A DNA stretch of 64,000 nt from Candidatus Babeliales bacterium (GTDB taxonomy: Bacteria > Babelota > Babeliae > Babelales > JACPOV01): assembly GCA_050250855.1 (NCBI GenBank), contig JBFWNW010000003.1:96001-160000 (forward strand), in the 5' to 3' direction. The notes below the pieces were generated by a model. It did not search any database, had not been told where the DNA came from, and worked only from the letters and a program-made list of their open reading frames with translations. The position numbers and the translations under genes are program-made. Below are positions 32,577 through 38,273 of the stretch, piece after piece. Position 1 is the first letter of the stretch. Every line of letters starts with the position of its first letter.

Positions 32577-32719
32577 ATGTGCAAAGAATCAATAATGAGC
32601 ATAATTTTTTTAAAAAAAATAAAAAATGTTGCATATTTTATTGACTTTGCAAAATTATAATCGGTATCCTGAAATTAAGTAGTAGTGAAATTTGTTCATC
32701 CTTAAAAAGGAGAAAGACG

Positions 32720-32884
32720 ATGGCAAAGAAAAGAAAGACAGCTAAAAAAGCTGTAGCAAAACGTAAAACTGCTAAGCGTAAAACTGCAAAACGTAAAGTT
32801 GCTAAAAAAGCTACTAAGCGTAAAACTGCAAAACGCAAAACAGCAAAACGTAAAGTTGCTAAAAAAGCTGCTAAAAGAAAGTAA
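32720..32884 (+). CDS. Small basic histone H1-like protein (HctB/Hc2-like pentapeptide repeats)
   Basis: AGGAG RBS; MAKKRKTAKKAVAKRKTAKRKTAKRKVAKKATKRKTAKRKTAKRKVAKKAAKRK* (54 aa, 31 K/R); downstream terminator; missing from the ORF track. Confidence 0.85.
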   Translation: MAKKRKTAKKAVAKRKTAKRKTAKRKVAKKATKRKTAKRKTAKRKVAKKAAKRK

Positions 32885-32900
32885 GCTTTTTTCACAAGCT

Positions 32901-32936
32901 AAAAAACGCTGTGTACTCAGTATACAGCGTTTTTTT
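32901..32936. terminator. Bidirectional terminator
   Basis: AAAAAACGCTGTGTACT-C-AGTATACAGCGTTTTTT. Confidence 0.8.
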
Positions 32937-33615
32937 ATGCTCTTTTTTTAACACCTACTCTCTGGCATTCATCGTAAATGGCGCAGCGTGAACAGGCTGG
33001 TACCACAGGAAGGCACACATTTTGCCCCCACATGACCAGTAAACGGTTCCATTCGGACCAGTATTCCTTGGGAAGTATCTTTTCTAGGGCTTTTTCTGTC
33101 TGCTCAGGCGTTTTTGTCTTTACCAAGCCTAGCCTATTAGAGATACGGTGAACATGGGTATCCACACAAATGGCAGGAATGCCATAGCTTTCAGCTAATA
33201 CCAAGCTTGCTGTTTTTGGCCCCACGCCAGGCAAAGAAAGCAGTTCTTCTCGTGTCCTTGGCACTTTACCGCCAAAATGTTCTAGGAGTTCCTCACTTAC
33301 TATTTTAAGACCGAGGGCTTTTTTGCGATAAAATCCGAGCTTATAAAGAATTTTTTCAAGATCTTTTAAAGGAATAGCAAGAATTTGCTGAGGTGTTTTT
33401 GCATGAGAAAAAAGATTCTGACAAACCGGTAAGGTCACGGTATCCTTGGCGCGTAAACTTAAAAGACAGCTTACTAAAACAAGAAAAGGATCGTTGCCAT
33501 ACTGGTCTATAATAGAAGAAACCATAGGTTTCACAAATGATTTTGTATTTTTTTTCAAAATAGCAATTATCTTAACAGCTCGCTCGCGCTGTCGCAAAAC
33601 CCATGGTTCTATCAT
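32935..33615 (-). CDS. nth: Endonuclease III
   Basis: HhH motif LPGVGPKTA, VDTHVHRISNRLG, and Fe-S motif C-x6-C-x2-C-x5-C. Confidence 0.95.
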   Translation of the reverse strand: MIEPWVLRQRERAVKIIAILKKNTKSFVKPMVSSIIDQYGNDPFLVLVSCLLSLRAKDTVTLPVCQNLFSHAKTPQQILAIPLKDLEKILYKLGFYRKKALGLKIVSEELLEHFGGKVPRTREELLSLPGVGPKTASLVLAESYGIPAICVDTHVHRISNRLGLVKTKTPEQTEKALEKILPKEYWSEWNRLLVMWGQNVCLPVVPACSRCAIYDECQRVGVKKRA

Positions 33616-33679
33616 ATACTCATTACTAACATTAGCTCCAGTTTGAAGAAAGAACTAATTTATGCTAAGATTTTAAATA

Positions 33680-33763
33680 TTAGCATGCAGGAGGAAATTC
33701 GGCTGCAATAAGTATAACAACCAAAATAACCTTACTTAATTTTTTGAAAAAATTAATGTTCAT
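33680..33763 (-). CDS. Small peptide (27 aa), putative signalling-peptide precursor
   Basis: AAGGAGG 6 nt before the ATG; MNINFFKKLSKVILVVILIAAEFPPAC*; divergent from the membrane regulator gene. Confidence 0.6.
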   Translation of the reverse strand: MNINFFKKLSKVILVVILIAAEFPPAC

Positions 33764-33842
33764 AAACAGCCTCCTTGTAAGGATGAAGTAAAATTAACCT
33801 GAAATAAGTATACCGATACACCAATTTAAATTCAAGAGAATA

Positions 33843-36566
33843 ATGCTTAATGTATTAGATTTTTTTCAAAATATCATAAATGGACTGCCACTCTTATTTA
33901 TTGTTCAATCAGTTTCTCTTTTTTTAAAAACTAGTCTTTTATTGATTGTTATTTTTAATGGATTACGATCACCAAAATTACAAAGGCCTTGGTTCTTTTT
34001 GCTAATTATTTTAATTGGTTCTATTTTTTCTAGTATCGCATGGATAGCTTCTATTGCTCAAAAAAAATTTCTAACTTCTGTCGATTACAGATTTATTCTT
34101 TTTATAATTCGTATATCTTGGGCCATAACCATGCTTCAGTATCAATCTCTTGCATTTTTTATGGAAAGTTTAATAGAAAAAGACTATACAATACCCAAAT
34201 ATCAAAAATTATTTACCCTGATTAGTCTTTCAATGTTTTCTATGTACTTATATTTAGCTTTCTTTAAATTTAGTTCTTCAACAATTAGACCTCCTATAGA
34301 ATATACTTTGCTTAATATAAGTTCAGCTTATGCCCTTATTCCTGTAATAATAAGCTTATTCATAGCTCTAAAAAAAATGCGCCAAAAAGGCAGGAACTTA
34401 CCTAAAATTTTAAAAAAACAGGCAAAAGTACTTATTCAAGGTTTTTTAGCGCCCACATTAATCCTTGATTTTCTACAGGTTTATCCTTTTAACTTCGTCC
34501 CGTCACTCATAGCAAGTAACTACGCTGTTGTAACCGTCTCAACTGGCCTTTTAACGTTTGCTTTCTATTTTTGTGCGCGTAAAATGATGGGATTACGCTT
34601 CTTGAATTTTAATAATCACGTACAATCGCCAAAAACTTATAATTTTATAGACGATTTTAAAGATGTTCTTGAACAACTTGGTCATGTAAGCAGTACAAAA
34701 GAGCTCAGCCACATTAGCCAGGCCTTTTTTAAAGGCGCGTTTAACATTCAACCAAGCAGAGTTAGCTTGTATATCAGAAAGCTTCAAGCTACAGAAAATG
34801 ATCAGACATCTGAAAGCGAACAGCTACCAAGTTCTTCAATAGAAACTGTTGTAGAAGCATTTATCAGCAGGCATGAATCGTGCAACATTGCTCCCTTCTT
34901 GCGCCAAACAAAAATTTTAATTACTGATGAGATAGCATTTAGTAATTTTTATGATGAAACAAGCATAACAAAAGAAGTTTTACAGTTTTTATATGATATT
35001 AATGCGGATATCTTTTTACCTATTTATGAAAAAAATACTATCATCGCTTATATTCTTATAGAGCGTGATGCACGCATTAATGAATTTTACAGTAATCTAG
35101 AGCGTGATGAAATGGTGGTATTTGCAAGTTACCTTGCCAATATTATTAACCTTCTCCAGAATAAAAATGTTCACATCATTATTCAAAAAGATAAAGAACT
35201 GCGCGAAGAGCTGTATCGTAAACATCAAGAAATTAATCAGTATAAAGAAAGTATACGCTCCTTTTTACATGATTCCAAGCAGCGCCAGATTGGTATTTTA
35301 TTTTATAAAAATCGCCGTTTCCATTACGGCAATCAAGCAGCTAAAGAGCTTATAAAAATAAATCTTCACACGCAAGAAGGACATCCTCTTTCTAAATCGT
35401 TGTATCAACTTGCGCATCAAGTGGACGACTATAAAGTAAGCCAAACTCATTTTGCAAAAGATATCCACGGCAATCGCTTGGTTATTGCTGGTATTCCTAA
35501 TCTTGAAAAAAATAACGTTATTATTGCCGTCTACTATCCTGAAGTTTCTGACATTATAAAAAATCAAATTGAACATTTAAAAGATCCGAGCGAGTGGGAC
35601 TATTTGCTTTACCTAGAAACAACACAATCTGGCAAACTTATCAAACAACTTATTCCCGGCTCTGGCGAACAACTTCTTAACTTTAAAATTGAACTTTTAA
35701 AAACTTCATTAAGCAAAAAAGCCCTGCTGCTTGAAGTTCCTGATGAAGATTTTTCATCTATCGTTGAACTTTTACATCACATAAGTTTGCGCGAAAAATT
35801 GCACACCCTCAAATTATCGTCTCATGAAAAAAACTTTGAAACGGCCATTAAACTCTTTGGCATTAATAGCATTTATGGCATCAATCAAGAGCAAGCAATT
35901 CTTGAAAAATTGAATAATATTGGCACACTCTGCATACAAAATATTCATTTCCTTGATCTTGAAACGCAGCACTACTTGGCAGAATTCATTCGTTATGGTT
36001 TTTACAGAGTGTTTAAAAGTGATCAAAAAGTTATTAGTAATGTACGCATTATTTGTTCAACAAACCAAAACTTGCAAACGTTGGTACAAGAAGGTAAGTT
36101 TTCTCGCGCTTTATATAATGAGCTGAATCAAACAACCCTTGCAATGCCACCACTTATTTCATTGCCAAAAGAAGAATTAAGCAATTTGGCAGAAGGTTAC
36201 ACGGAACAGGCAGTCCAAAGCCAAGCATTTACTAATTTACTGGCTTTAACAGAAAAAGAAAAAACAAGACTCATTAATTCATGCCCGGTCAGTTTGCAAG
36301 AGTTTAAAACAAAAGTACAACAAATGCTGGTTAAAAAATCGCAGAAAAATAATATTTATGAAGAAACTCTGTTTGATCCTGCATATAATGTAACTGATCC
36401 AGAATTAGTACAAGCAGCGCGCTTAGGCAAAAAGGCACTTAAAGATCCAAAAACTTTAGCTCTTTTAATGGATAAATTTAAAAATCAAAACAAAATTGCA
36501 AAATTCTTGGGTGTTAATCGTTCTTCTGTTAACCGCCGTTGTAAAGATTATAATATTAGTGAATAA
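33843..36566 (+). CDS. Membrane-bound regulator: ~7TM domain, GAF/PAS-like region, degenerate sigma54-activator-like AAA+ domain, Fis-type HTH
   Basis: About 250 hydrophobic N-terminal residues; VRIICSTNQNLQTLVQEGKFSRALY (cf. VRIIAATNRDL...G.FR.DLY); C-terminal NQNKIAKFLGVNRSSVNRR. Confidence 0.8.
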   Translation: MLNVLDFFQNIINGLPLLFIVQSVSLFLKTSLLLIVIFNGLRSPKLQRPWFFLLIILIGSIFSSIAWIASIAQKKFLTSVDYRFILFIIRISWAITMLQYQSLAFFMESLIEKDYTIPKYQKLFTLISLSMFSMYLYLAFFKFSSSTIRPPIEYTLLNISSAYALIPVIISLFIALKKMRQKGRNLPKILKKQAKVLIQGFLAPTLILDFLQVYPFNFVPSLIASNYAVVTVSTGLLTFAFYFCARKMMGLRFLNFNNHVQSPKTYNFIDDFKDVLEQLGHVSSTKELSHISQAFFKGAFNIQPSRVSLYIRKLQATENDQTSESEQLPSSSIETVVEAFISRHESCNIAPFLRQTKILITDEIAFSNFYDETSITKEVLQFLYDINADIFLPIYEKNTIIAYILIERDARINEFYSNLERDEMVVFASYLANIINLLQNKNVHIIIQKDKELREELYRKHQEINQYKESIRSFLHDSKQRQIGILFYKNRRFHYGNQAAKELIKINLHTQEGHPLSKSLYQLAHQVDDYKVSQTHFAKDIHGNRLVIAGIPNLEKNNVIIAVYYPEVSDIIKNQIEHLKDPSEWDYLLYLETTQSGKLIKQLIPGSGEQLLNFKIELLKTSLSKKALLLEVPDEDFSSIVELLHHISLREKLHTLKLSSHEKNFETAIKLFGINSIYGINQEQAILEKLNNIGTLCIQNIHFLDLETQHYLAEFIRYGFYRVFKSDQKVISNVRIICSTNQNLQTLVQEGKFSRALYNELNQTTLAMPPLISLPKEELSNLAEGYTEQAVQSQAFTNLLALTEKEKTRLINSCPVSLQEFKTKVQQMLVKKSQKNNIYEETLFDPAYNVTDPELVQAARLGKKALKDPKTLALLMDKFKNQNKIAKFLGVNRSSVNRRCKDYNISE

Positions 36567-36591
36567 ATTTTAATAACAAAAGGAGAACACA

Positions 36592-37260
36592 ATGTTTTTT
36601 TATATTTATTCGGCCATAGCCTGTTTACAATCTATACTTTCCTTTACGGTTTATAGAAATATGCTCAATGCACCTACAAAAAAATTATGGATCTTTCTTT
36701 CGGTTATAGCTACAGCAAACCTTCTTACTTCTACTGCCTACGCTATTCTCTTTCTAGAAACAGTTCCTCATCACCTTAAAATGCCCTTTTTTATGTTCTG
36801 CTGGGGAGTAACAATGCTTTCTTTACAATCTTTCATATTTCTGCTCGAATACATAACAAAAATACCTAACAAGCTACCTAAAATATTTTTGCCTCTTAAT
36901 GTAATGCTCAGCTTATATTTTTTTTATATAGCATTTACCAATAACTACCCTGCTCATAAAGATACTTTTTTCTTAATTGTAGGTCTTTACTTACCAAGCT
37001 CTGTTATGTTCTGGACTATTTATGGCATTAAAAGAATAGCCCTAAATAGTTATACCTCTTCACTCAAAAGAAAAATTACACATATGTTACTTTATGGAGC
37101 TTTACCTGCAGCATCTCTAGAATTCTTAATACTATTAATAAAACATATACATGTTAATAGTTTTTTATTAATAGTTATCTATGCTCTTATTAGCATTGAA
37201 CTGCTTTTTTGGGCATATACTATCTTCCTACTGCAATCAATAATAAAAGAGATTTCATAA
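36592..37260 (+). CDS. Membrane protein, stand-alone paralog of the upstream regulator's TM domain
   Basis: FCWGVTMLSLQSFIFLLEYI vs ISWAITMLQYQSLAFFMESL; KLWIFLSVIATANLL vs RPWFFLLIILIGSIF; AGGAG RBS. Confidence 0.7.
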   Translation: MFFYIYSAIACLQSILSFTVYRNMLNAPTKKLWIFLSVIATANLLTSTAYAILFLETVPHHLKMPFFMFCWGVTMLSLQSFIFLLEYITKIPNKLPKIFLPLNVMLSLYFFYIAFTNNYPAHKDTFFLIVGLYLPSSVMFWTIYGIKRIALNSYTSSLKRKITHMLLYGALPAASLEFLILLIKHIHVNSFLLIVIYALISIELLFWAYTIFLLQSIIKEIS

Positions 37261-37343
37261 ATAAATTTCATGATTAAAAAAGATAAATTCTTGAAAAAAA
37301 CCTCCTCTTGCCTTACTTTAAAAGCACACATAAGAGGAGAATT

Positions 37344-38273
37344 ATGGATTTCAAACAGTTCAAACAAAAAAAAGAAGAATTTATCACGTACCTTGATGTA
37401 GAAAAAAATCTTTCCATTAATACGCGCAGAGCATACAAAACAGATCTTGATCAATTTATTACGTTTTGGTTTGAGCATACCAATAGAAATAAGATCGAAC
37501 TTCCTTTACGCCAAATTATCGAGCGCTTCTTAGTTGCCTTGTATGCAAAAAAAATTGATAAAACATCTATTGCGCGCAAAATATCATGCTTTACTTCGTT
37601 TGCACGCTTTATGCAAGCACAAGGAGTTAAATTAACGCTCAAATTAACACGCCCGCGCCTTGATAAAAAGTTACCTATCTATTTGAGCATGGATGAAGTT
37701 TCTTATTTGCTTGATACTATAAAACCAGACGATCTTCCAAGCAAACGCCCATTCCGCGACAAAGCAATTTTTGAATTACTCTATGCAACCGGCATTCGTT
37801 GCTCAGAGCTTGTTGCCATAACGTTTGAACAAATAGATTTTATCAGTAGAACTATTAGAATTATTGGTAAGGGAAATAAAGAGCGTTTTGTGCTGTTTGG
37901 TTCAAAAGCAGAAGAATCACTAAAAAACTACCTAAAAGAAGAACGTCCTGAGCCAGATGATCGCCAAGCAAAACTGTTTTTAAATAATCGTAGCGAGCCT
38001 CTTACCGTGCGTTCTGTGCAGCGTATTTGTGAAATGTTTCGCCAGTTTTTAAAAATACGTAAAAAAATAACACCGCACAAATTGCGCCATTCGTTTGCTA
38101 CACACCTTTTAAATCAAGGGACTGATCTGCGTGTTGTGCAAGAATTGTTAGGACACAGCTCATTAAGTAGTACAGAAAAATATACGCATGTAACTACCAA
38201 ACAGTTAAGTGATATGTGCAACAGTTTGCATCCCTACAACACCATGAATACCAAGAAAGAAAATGATTCTTAA
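37344..38273 (+). CDS. xerC: Tyrosine recombinase XerC/XerD family
   Basis: ELLYATGIRCSEL, GKGNKER, TPHKLRHSFATHLL and QELLGH...TEKYT; ATG at 37344 after GAGGAG. xerC vs xerD is not distinguishable by eye. Confidence 0.85.
   Translation: MDFKQFKQKKEEFITYLDVEKNLSINTRRAYKTDLDQFITFWFEHTNRNKIELPLRQIIERFLVALYAKKIDKTSIARKISCFTSFARFMQAQGVKLTLKLTRPRLDKKLPIYLSMDEVSYLLDTIKPDDLPSKRPFRDKAIFELLYATGIRCSELVAITFEQIDFISRTIRIIGKGNKERFVLFGSKAEESLKNYLKEERPEPDDRQAKLFLNNRSEPLTVRSVQRICEMFRQFLKIRKKITPHKLRHSFATHLLNQGTDLRVVQELLGHSSLSSTEKYTHVTTKQLSDMCNSLHPYNTMNTKKENDS

Follow-up and report, generated by a model that had tools for sequence, protein, structure and literature searches.

In the Rgg/SHP and ComR/ComS cassettes of streptococci, both of the RRNPP class, a short, unannotated gene for a hydrophobic precursor lies beside, and often divergent from, the gene for a receptor that is itself the transcription factor. 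Activity resides in the C-terminal tail, paralogous pairs employ distinct peptides, and the active tails carry conserved features such as the acidic first residue of SHP and the double tryptophan of ComS. In AgrC/AgrD and ComD/ComC a peptide from a small precursor is sensed from the outside by a polytopic domain of six to seven transmembrane (TM) helices that diversifies together with the peptide. Here we describe a locus that resembles both arrangements in these respects, with the tail as the proposed active part. It lies in a stretch of 64,000 nucleotides (nt) from Candidatus Babeliales bacterium (assembly GCA_050250855.1, contig JBFWNW010000003.1, positions 96,001–160,000 of the forward strand), which we call the window, and consists of a 27-codon open reading frame (ORF) and a divergently oriented gene for a 907-residue membrane protein. 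The 27-codon ORF is a conserved protein-coding gene. Together the two genes probably, though by no means certainly, form a two-gene peptide-signalling module in which the small product is the exported ligand of a one-component membrane transcription factor.

The resemblances have clear limits. The receptors of RRNPP cassettes are TPR-HTH proteins of the cytoplasm to which the peptide binds after re-import, whereas the protein described here has seven TM helices, is without TPR and would sense its ligand at the membrane without import. RRNPP cassettes belong to the Firmicutes, whereas the present genes come from a phylum of diderm, obligately intracellular parasites, the Dependentiae. AgrC and ComD are histidine kinases that act with a separate response regulator and with AgrB or ComAB, whereas here the helix-turn-helix (HTH) is on the same chain, there is no kinase and the ORF list of the window holds no peptide-processing gene at the locus. 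In the 907-residue protein no HisKA, HATPase_c or TPR domain was matched in Pfam, nor a kinase domain in NCBIfam. The module therefore belongs neither to the RRNPP nor to the Agr/Com class. Its output module descends from enhancer-binding proteins and fails four of their defining features. The Dependentiae parasitise protists and are widespread; their genomes, about 1 Mb in size, hold very few regulators. A search of the literature on their regulators, sigma-54, signalling peptides and seven-TM proteins, with subscription journals outside its reach, returned no paper on this module. The main features, all within the window, are as follows.

33680..33763, minus strand: peptide precursor gene, 27 codons and stop; product MNINFFKKLSKVILVVILIAAEFPPAC
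33770..33776, minus strand: Shine–Dalgarno sequence AAGGAGG of the peptide gene, 6 nt ahead of its ATG (reads cctcctt on the plus strand)
33764..33842, no strand assigned: divergent control region, the 79 nt between both start codons; contains AAGTATAC at 33806–33813
33843..36566, plus strand: 907-residue receptor-regulator with seven TM helices and GAF-like, coiled-coil, PAS-like, predicted ATPase-dead AAA+ and HTH parts
33843..34628, plus strand: sensor domain (residues 1–262), seven TM helices
Residues 15–42, 48–75, 82–111, 119–141, 151–181, 188–213 and 227–250 of the receptor: predicted TM helices, N-terminus out and C-terminus in
34644..35537, plus strand: cytoplasmic region, GAF-like (268–440), coiled coil (443–480) and PAS-like (484–565), from the secondary structure of the model
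35724..36242, plus strand: degenerate AAA+ core of the sigma-54-activator type (residues ~628–800)
36399..36548, plus strand: C-terminal HTH (residues ~853–902), the most conserved stretch of the family

A conserved peptide gene that accompanies the receptor gene

A preliminary description of this locus, made from the DNA alone, had pointed to the small ORF with AAGGAGG 6 nt upstream of its start, to the 79 nt between its ATG and that of the 907-residue protein, and to the failure of gene callers to report it. The sequence and the coordinates proved correct. Of ten peptides of this kind that we checked, seven, that of the window included, are absent from a collection of 15 billion predicted proteins, and the other three are present but nameless; the absence of the exact window sequence shows that the ORF went uncalled. 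Neither Pfam nor NCBIfam gave a match for the window peptide. It has a basic N-terminal region (Lys7, Lys8 and Lys11), an aliphatic core of ten residues followed by a glutamate, and the tail EFPPAC, which is preceded by the small residues IAA. The three lysines before the core and the glutamate after it predict an orientation with the N-terminus inside and the C-terminus outside.

As a check set in advance, the preliminary description had proposed that a small ORF with a ribosome-binding site should be conserved opposite the homologues of the receptor. We sampled 70 loci (the 30 best, 20 with tandem copies and 20 more distant ones with a single copy), which were picked from the receptor match list before any peptide was looked at. 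The sample holds 86 distinct receptor ORFs, and 85 remained after one near-duplicate (L006, of L005) was left out. Our detector accepted a divergent upstream ORF with an ATG start and two consecutive prolines (PP) within its last 14 residues; peptides that also have a hydrophobic 11-mer were counted separately. Such a mini-ORF was found upstream of 80 of the 85 receptor genes, and 70 of the 85 also have the hydrophobic 11-mer. The control regions reach 9% at most: 8/85 on the other strand of the same upstream regions (two hydrophobic), 16/255 (one hydrophobic) and 9/255 (none) in two controls inside receptor genes, and 22/425 (two hydrophobic) in shuffled upstream regions. Among the 2359 small ORFs of the first 30 loci, 31 fit a strict motif and 30 of these precede a receptor gene. 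The genome of the window (1.22 Mb, 95% complete) has only one other fit to the detector, an unrelated membrane protein of 59 residues. The counts for the strict motif and for the control regions rule out a chance ORF.

The homologous ORFs share further properties. They start 50–160 nt upstream of the receptor gene in 74 of 80 cases, with a median spacer of about 85 nt, and Shine–Dalgarno-like words stand ahead of 75 of the 80, strong ones (GGAG or GAGG) ahead of 44; that all 80 start with ATG is partly built in, because the detector prefers this codon. In an alignment of 57 peptides Pro24 and Pro25 are the only invariant residues. The proline pair is spelled by 11 different codon pairs, and the constraint therefore acts on the protein. 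A 13-residue segment with a hydropathy of 2.0 or more is present in 68 of the 80 peptides. In the 70 short peptides the tail after PP is brief, with two residues in 41 and one to three in 64.

The tails differ between paralogues. Those of first copies mostly carry an acidic or neutral residue two positions ahead of PP (TDGPPNT, DEFPPNR, GEWPPAK), and those of second copies mostly have an arginine and an aromatic residue before it (LRWPPTE, LRYPPNA, FRFPPQG; also IRMPPSY). Mapped onto the receptor tree, the tails group by clade, as with LIQPPC, LIQPPTN and IIQPPV, with GQIPPVSGG, which occurs twice, and with ADMPPYA and ADMPPLY. Some precursors repeat the tail: that of L051, MYNHKLRIRNLANALLVGMALFAFSNTFSIDITGQDDFPPMGIRSDDFPPMGCHDDEFPPMG, has three copies, that of L046 has two copies of SVFPPIS, and those of L032, L062, L068 and L030 have two or three. 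Others (L048 and L060) look like a signal peptide joined to the tail by a hydrophilic linker. Between the window and L002, from the same genus, peptide identity is 46% and receptor identity 72%.

Two genes flank the pair at most loci, and they help to define it as a unit.

32935..33615, minus strand: nth-like endonuclease III gene, conserved left flank (Pfam HhH-GPD, E value 7.5e-23)
37308..38273, plus strand: XerC/D-like tyrosine recombinase gene, conserved right flank (Pfam Phage_integrase, E value 4.5e-45)

The nth gene follows the peptide gene on the same strand after a gap of 64 nt, and in nearly all loci the two are neighbours. The receptor family is present in 189 of the 261 genomes of the phylum, with 45–72% identity over the full length among the 150 matches listed. 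It is missing from five whole families (0/3, 0/7, 0/1, 0/6 and 0/2 genomes in f4, f6, f12, f14 and f15) and from nearly all genomes of f17 (three weak matches in 35) and f18 (one in 12), so that the module is clade-restricted within the phylum. From genomes without a receptor we fetched 24 nth loci. An ORF with a PP tail stands upstream of nth in four of them and is hydrophobic in only one, where it runs antisense within the xerC-like gene region; in 20 of the 24 the xerC-like gene is directly divergent from nth. With the peptide gene missing and nth abutting xerC, we conclude that the peptide and receptor genes come and go together at these loci. We reject an explanation of the mini-ORF as the leader peptide of nth, since it tracks the divergent receptor and not nth.

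Rearranged loci show the same association. In L008 a decayed receptor copy takes the place of nth, yet the peptide gene still precedes the intact receptor. In tandem duplicates the second receptor gene often has its own mini-ORF in a gap of 250–420 nt, with no gene downstream of that mini-ORF, and where the gap is only about 90–100 nt (L044 and L048) there is no second mini-ORF. In L017 (1174–1431) and L052 (1203–1375) it is the peptide gene that is duplicated in tandem, before a single receptor gene. Decaying receptor paralogues occur alongside intact ones. We note receptor copies with several in-frame stops at G121:C1:1509115-1511511, G194:C1:200319-202688, G253:C1:576712-579420, G025:C1:968484-971186 and G260:C1:233476-234777.

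Among 17 distant receptors (25–43% identity) inspected by eye, six keep an ORF of the PP type and six have other mini-ORFs that look exported. One genome, G015, has eight receptor matches and five divergent ORFs for signal peptides with a different shared tail, EF plus three residues (loci L122, L128, L130 and L134; also L114, L132 and L135). The tails are SEFSQN, VEFSQN, SEFNQK, AEFSRH and TEFLS, with CRGDTSEFSQN and CHADFAEFSRH as longer examples. These mini-ORFs are a second peptide family on a divergent branch of the receptor.

Structure and ancestry of the receptor-regulator

The full-length AlphaFold2 model of the 907-residue protein, built with 85 homologues, has a predicted local distance difference test score (pLDDT) of 87.8. 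It bears out the architecture given in the preliminary description, in that seven TM helices are followed in the cytoplasm by alpha/beta structure, then by an AAA+ fold and a helical HTH. Modelled alone, the TM domain is a seven-helix bundle with a pLDDT of 91.9 and a predicted TM-score of 0.89. Lysines and arginines number 11 in inside and 5 in outside segments of the window protein and average 8.7 and 3.7 over the 85 sequences, a bias which favours an N-terminus outside and a C-terminus inside. The TM domain is the more variable part (mean column identity 34%, against 51% for the whole protein). Even so, Lys29, Asp64 (a serine in the window protein), Trp67, Arg90, Trp93, Glu153 and Gln193 are kept in 84–100% of the sequences. 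Together with the buried Lys29 and Arg90, the two tryptophans, which are nearly invariant, could conceivably hold the prolines and the C-terminal carboxylate of the tail in the manner of proline-recognition domains, an idea that is pure inference.

The overall arrangement of the TM domain is like that of G-protein-coupled receptors (GPCRs). In a wide search with VIA-align the 50 best entries all have the GPCR fold (Z 15.9–13.5, 211–252 residues, root-mean-square deviation (rmsd) 3.7–6.3). The yeast pheromone receptor Ste2, like the present protein a seven-helix bundle with its N-terminus outside, superposes with Z 15.4 (7ad3_B, 248 residues, rmsd 5.3). For the present protein, too, a short peptide is the proposed ligand. 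Foldseek against the PDB gave marginal GPCR matches (best E value 9.1e-4, TM-scores 0.5–0.6). No Pfam family matched the domain over its cut-off, and no 7tm family at E values up to 10. Helical bundles can reach such Z values by arrangement alone, and we therefore claim a GPCR-like arrangement and not homology. The likeness to eukaryotic GPCRs stands at the level of the fold only, for identity in the alignments is 7–12%, there is no G protein and a DNA-binding output is fused to the domain. Similar in plan are the bacterial HisKA_7TM (PF16927), 7TMR-DISM and 7TM-AraC proteins, in which an N-terminal seven-helix sensor is likewise joined to a cytoplasmic output, although none of them matches the TM domain at the sequence level. 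The nearest structures in the ESM Atlas are HisKA_7TM kinases, a 7TM-AraC cluster and a 7TM-GGDEF cluster (TM-scores 0.58–0.69), which we treat as leads only. We know of no peptide partner for those modules. With a profile of the TM domain we retrieved 403 representative clusters from 1.84 billion proteins; in the best 150 of these the domain begins at about residue 1, either in proteins of about 900 residues or in shorter pieces.

The cytoplasmic region that follows is called GAF-like and PAS-like from the alpha/beta pattern of the model, and Pfam gives no match over its cut-off there (the best is MEKHLA, E value 0.16). The next domain has a clearer pedigree. Pfam PF00158 (Sigma54_activat) matches residues 670–766 over positions 69–167 of its 168 (E value 7.5e-11), which is the second half of the domain; NCBIfam gives partial matches to PspF, NtrX, TyrR and DhaR, far under their cut-offs; and Foldseek retrieves NtrX, NtrC1 and PspF (E values 1.7e-9 to 1e-8) as well as FlrC and LuxO. 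In a residue alignment with NtrC1, read at what we take to be the motif positions of that protein, EVPDEDFSS stands in place of Walker A and QN in place of the DE of Walker B, and E/L occupies the arginine-finger position. GAFTGA is replaced as well, with LFGINSIYGIN (the INSIYG region) aligned to LFGYEKGAFTGAV of NtrC1. The family consensus repeats all four losses. The AAA+ core is homologous to sigma-54 activators and, judged from these residues, is predicted to be dead as an ATPase.

The Sigma54_DBD family (PF04552), on which our search for sigma-54 relied, is absent from the genome of the window at its 95% completeness and over cut-off in none of the 261 genomes of the phylum, while control genomes were positive. 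The domain that the preliminary description called AAA+-like is thus a dead ATPase in a phylum without sigma-54, which that description had not foreseen and which does not conflict with its idea. Members of the family are named 'sigma 54-interacting transcriptional regulator [Candidatus Dependentiae/Babeliales]' at NCBI. With the motifs lost and no sigma-54 to interact with, this name tells of ancestry and not of function, and the receptor must act without sigma-54 and without ATP hydrolysis. It shows the fate of a sigma-54 activator in a lineage that lacks sigma-54.

Atypical relatives of the enhancer-binding proteins, among them TyrR, PhhR, NtrX, VpsR and HupR, share with the receptor an AAA+ domain of the sigma-54-activator type without a working GAFTGA, a C-terminal HTH and independence of sigma-54. 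These TyrR-type relatives are soluble and most keep nucleotide binding. The receptor differs from them in having lost Walker A, Walker B, the arginine finger and GAFTGA together, in being anchored by seven TM helices and in being paired with a peptide gene. In its HTH the residues Gly862, Ala865, Leu866, Leu875, Ala886, Leu889, Arg893, Ser894, Ser895, Arg898 and Arg899 are invariant. HTH_50 and HTH_24 match this region weakly, below cut-off, and the NCBIfam alignments with NtrX, TyrR and DhaR reach the C-termini of those proteins.

Proposed function of the pair and the alternatives

In the scheme that we favour, the basic N-region and hydrophobic core would carry the precursor into or through the inner membrane, with its N-terminus in and its C-terminus out, so that the EFPPAC tail with its invariant prolines would be exposed on the periplasmic side. 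The tail might be freed by cleavage behind IAA or stay tethered, and would bind the outward side of the GPCR-like bundle of the divergently encoded receptor. The signal would pass through the GAF-like and PAS-like domains to the ATPase-dead AAA+ core, serving as an oligomerisation scaffold, and on to the HTH. Because the phylum is without sigma-54, the HTH should act at ordinary sigma-70 promoters. Its likely target is the shared control region of 79 nt, which would close an autoregulatory loop. We infer export, processing, direct binding and the direction of regulation, and the signal reported may be cell density, confinement in the host vacuole or autocrine feedback. The genome of the window encodes signal peptidase I and two M50 site-2 proteases, which are housekeeping enzymes.

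The sequence AAGTATAC in the control region is a –10-like element that can be read both ways, as TATACC on the plus strand and as TATACT on the minus strand, where it is part of a promoter-like site, TTGAAT-17-TATACT, ending at 33807. A scan of 33550–33950 found three promoter-like sites, where 2.2 are expected from shuffled sequences, and no terminator; this does not exceed the shuffles and does not count as evidence. Of the 80 homologous spacers, 50 contain GTATA, part of a –10-like word of the AGTATAAT type, for the most part 32–36 nt ahead of the start codon of the receptor; AGTATA is present in 48 of the 80, mostly about 33 nt ahead of that codon. We also note that the receptor genes are without a Shine–Dalgarno sequence and have a word of the type ATCAATA or AGCAAGA directly ahead of the start codon (window 33806–33842 and the spacers of L002–L070).

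Contact between the two products was examined by predicting a complex of the TM domain (alignment of 85 rows) with the 27-residue peptide (57 rows). The runs scored 0.51, 0.58 and 0.58, and no control of the three rose above 0.00; the runs have at least 68% of their contacts in common, and the pLDDT of the partner is at least 54. This is weak support. The mark applied is reached by 116 of 157 solved complexes and by 2 of 215 mismatched pairs, and at scores of 0.60 or less by 18 of the 157 and by both mismatches; this calibration excludes cases such as ours, with a chain of fewer than 30 residues and alignments of our own. The idea of the preliminary description, that an exported peptide is read by a one-component membrane factor, is partly supported. 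Co-occurrence as a unit, tails that are repeated or specific to a paralogue, and variants with signal peptides speak for it, as does, weakly, the predicted complex.

Several observations weigh against this scheme. The complex score of 0.58 lies in a band where predictions are wrong in most cases, save those in which the guess had been likely beforehand, and a hydrophobic helix may dock unspecifically on a membrane bundle. Five of the 85 receptors are without a PP ORF, and 5 of the 17 distant ones have no mini-ORF evident by eye. A residue of the small kind (Ala, Gly or Ser) stands at the putative cleavage position in just 31 of the 70 short peptides, and the basic-tail class has leucine or phenylalanine there; since most peptides are without it, cleavage is possible for the window peptide but not general. 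Several second-copy peptides are barely or not at all hydrophobic (MFGWPPPAPAVSL, MKKNTMLVVKANTQLNWPPAD) or have their sole charge beside the tail, which makes Sec export and an outward tail doubtful for them. The short forms, with about six protruding residues, suit a tethered subunit and a free ligand equally. When loss of PP in the peptide is set against loss of Lys29, Trp67 or Trp93 in the receptor, the picture is mixed. The genome analysis of Chromulinavorax, a cultured member of the phylum, states that quorum-sensing mechanisms are absent (PMC6561590), a statement that reflects annotation and not a test.

Covariation of tails and receptors belongs with these points. The receptor columns that separate the acidic-tail from the basic-tail class fall mostly in predicted outward loops (residues 13–16, 142–150 and 209–226), with Arg149 in receptors of the acidic-tail class against an inserted glutamate and E/D in the basic-tail class. 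This is suggestive, and consistent with recognition of the tails. The preliminary description had proposed a test for such covariation, and the tails do follow the receptor clades; the match is nevertheless not independent evidence, because the basic-tail class is essentially one clade and the covariation goes back to essentially one ancient duplication.

The strongest competitor makes the small protein not a diffusible signal but a permanent or regulated single-pass membrane subunit or modulator of the receptor, its helix lying on the seven-helix bundle and its PP tail capping the outward face, as a feedback within the same cell; MgrB, which acts on PhoQ, and SafA are models of such modulators. 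Most of the peptides suit it, being 25–39 residues long with one strongly hydrophobic segment that ends two to three residues before PP, and with the hydropathy and the short tail noted above. The signal-peptidase type of small residue is missing in over half, a divergent arrangement is natural for a partner controlled by the regulator, and the complex prediction cannot separate a docked helix from a ligand. Against a subunit stand the precursors of L048, L060 and L033, in which a classical signal peptide and a long hydrophilic linker put the tail at the far end, the two or three tail repeats in L051, L046 and L068, and the second copies of L037, L045 and L046, which have no hydrophobic segment. 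The sole invariant residues, moreover, are two prolines outside the helix. We consider a subunit unlikely.

It is improbable, in our estimate, that the peptide is instead an output of the regulator, an exported effector with antimicrobial or host-directed action that is switched on when the seven TM helices or the GAF/PAS region sense another cue. Divergent promoters and strict co-occurrence would fit a regulator and its target equally well, and the rapid change of the peptide between the window and L002 is effector-like. Recognition explains more simply why a regulator is kept for a single 27-residue product in genomes of about 1 Mb, why the two genes are duplicated together and why the receptor diversifies most in its outward loops, in parallel with the tail. 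The predicted complex, weak as its support is, also speaks for contact.

Least of all do we believe in a regulatory leader, a functionless peptide whose EF-P-dependent pause at Pro-Pro near the stop codon would control nth or local transcription from the divergent promoters: PP is the sole invariant feature and lies one to three residues from the stop in 64 of the 70 short forms, the ORF is co-directional with nth and 64 nt upstream of it, and EF-P is encoded, but receptor-less genomes keep nth without such an ORF (the one hydrophobic PP-tail ORF in 24 being the antisense one), the peptide genes of second copies and of L008 have no downstream gene to control, the G015 branch has exchanged PP for another conserved tail, no RAPP-like context is conserved around PP, and tail repeats, signal peptides and paralogue-specific residues next to PP would be superfluous for stalling. 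Proline-rich peptides that arrest ribosomes and have a membrane segment at the N-terminus do exist (SecM, MifM and the RAPP type). Force-sensing of the MifM or SecM type appears excluded here, because the hydrophobic segment ends two to three residues before PP and would still be in the ribosome tunnel.

As a more general proposal, which we offer tentatively and hold to be somewhat less likely than not, the Dependentiae would use Sec-exported mini-peptides with PP tails (EF-x-x-x in one branch), read by a GPCR-like seven-helix receptor that is at the same time a transcription factor built on an ATPase-stripped sigma-54-activator core. This would be an undescribed class of cell–cell or confinement signalling in which paralogous pairs serve as orthogonal channels. 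If this holds, a peptide-pheromone system would for the first time be known from a diderm, obligately intracellular phylum, and a genetically encoded peptide ligand for the first time for a bacterial seven-TM receptor; the pair may report crowding of the host vacuole to the parasite. It would unite two ideas that in bacteria have stood separate, genetically encoded peptide signals, so far of the Firmicutes-type RRNPP and Agr/Com kinds, and seven-helix receptors. Tied to the main membrane regulator and spread across the phylum, the unannotated peptide gene is a concrete and testable candidate for the control of infection, replication and exit; that it times a developmental switch, as the preliminary description suggested, is speculation. 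More widely, genes of 20–40 codons that gene callers miss can be found divergently upstream of orphan regulators.

The 222-residue reading frame and other neighbours

Directly downstream of the receptor gene lies one further membrane ORF.

36592..37260, plus strand: orphan membrane ORF of 222 residues, starting 25 nt past the receptor gene

The preliminary description had aligned it by eye with the TM domain of the regulator, and the profile comparison, which it had named as a check, is significant. Aligned by hhalign to a profile of the TM domains of 85 receptors, the ORF product scores a probability of 91.7% and an E value of 7.7e-7 over 197 aligned columns, and BLASTP against the 907-residue protein gives an E value of 6e-5 with 28% identity (residues 39–140 against 23–115). 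The role assigned to it, as a decoy or modulator within the system, is not supported. Neither Pfam nor NCBIfam gave a match over cut-off, and no match was found in the other 260 genomes of the phylum, that of the same genus included; at the other loci xerC directly follows the receptor. Being unique to its own genome, the ORF does not belong to the conserved module.

A functional TM-only decoy or modulator of the receptor is for these reasons doubtful, although some features are in its favour. The ORF is intact, with AAGGAG 8 nt upstream, seven to eight hydrophobic segments and a GC content at third codon positions of 0.25 (receptor, 0.26); the profile similarity spans nearly the whole TM domain; and co-transcription is probable, since only 25 nt separate it from the receptor gene. 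Apart from its absence elsewhere, it does not keep the family-invariant Gln193 in the hhalign alignment. A young, truncated leftover of a receptor duplicate is the simpler origin, because the family often shows full-length tandem duplicates and copies in decay.

The neighbours of the receptor gene in the window are nth, the 222-residue ORF and xerC, together with an ORF of 568 residues that resembles a penicillin-binding protein by eye. Beyond nth, an ORF of 54 residues (32720–32884, plus strand) consists almost entirely of Lys, Ala, Arg and Thr repeats and has a histone-H1-like composition. The ORF of 85 residues on the minus strand at 32638–32895 is probably its antisense shadow, and similar lysine-rich ORFs adjoin nth in L003 and L059. 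Farther to the right, an ORF of 290 residues (39981–40853, minus strand) has a hydrophobic N-terminus and, by eye, ankyrin-like repeats.

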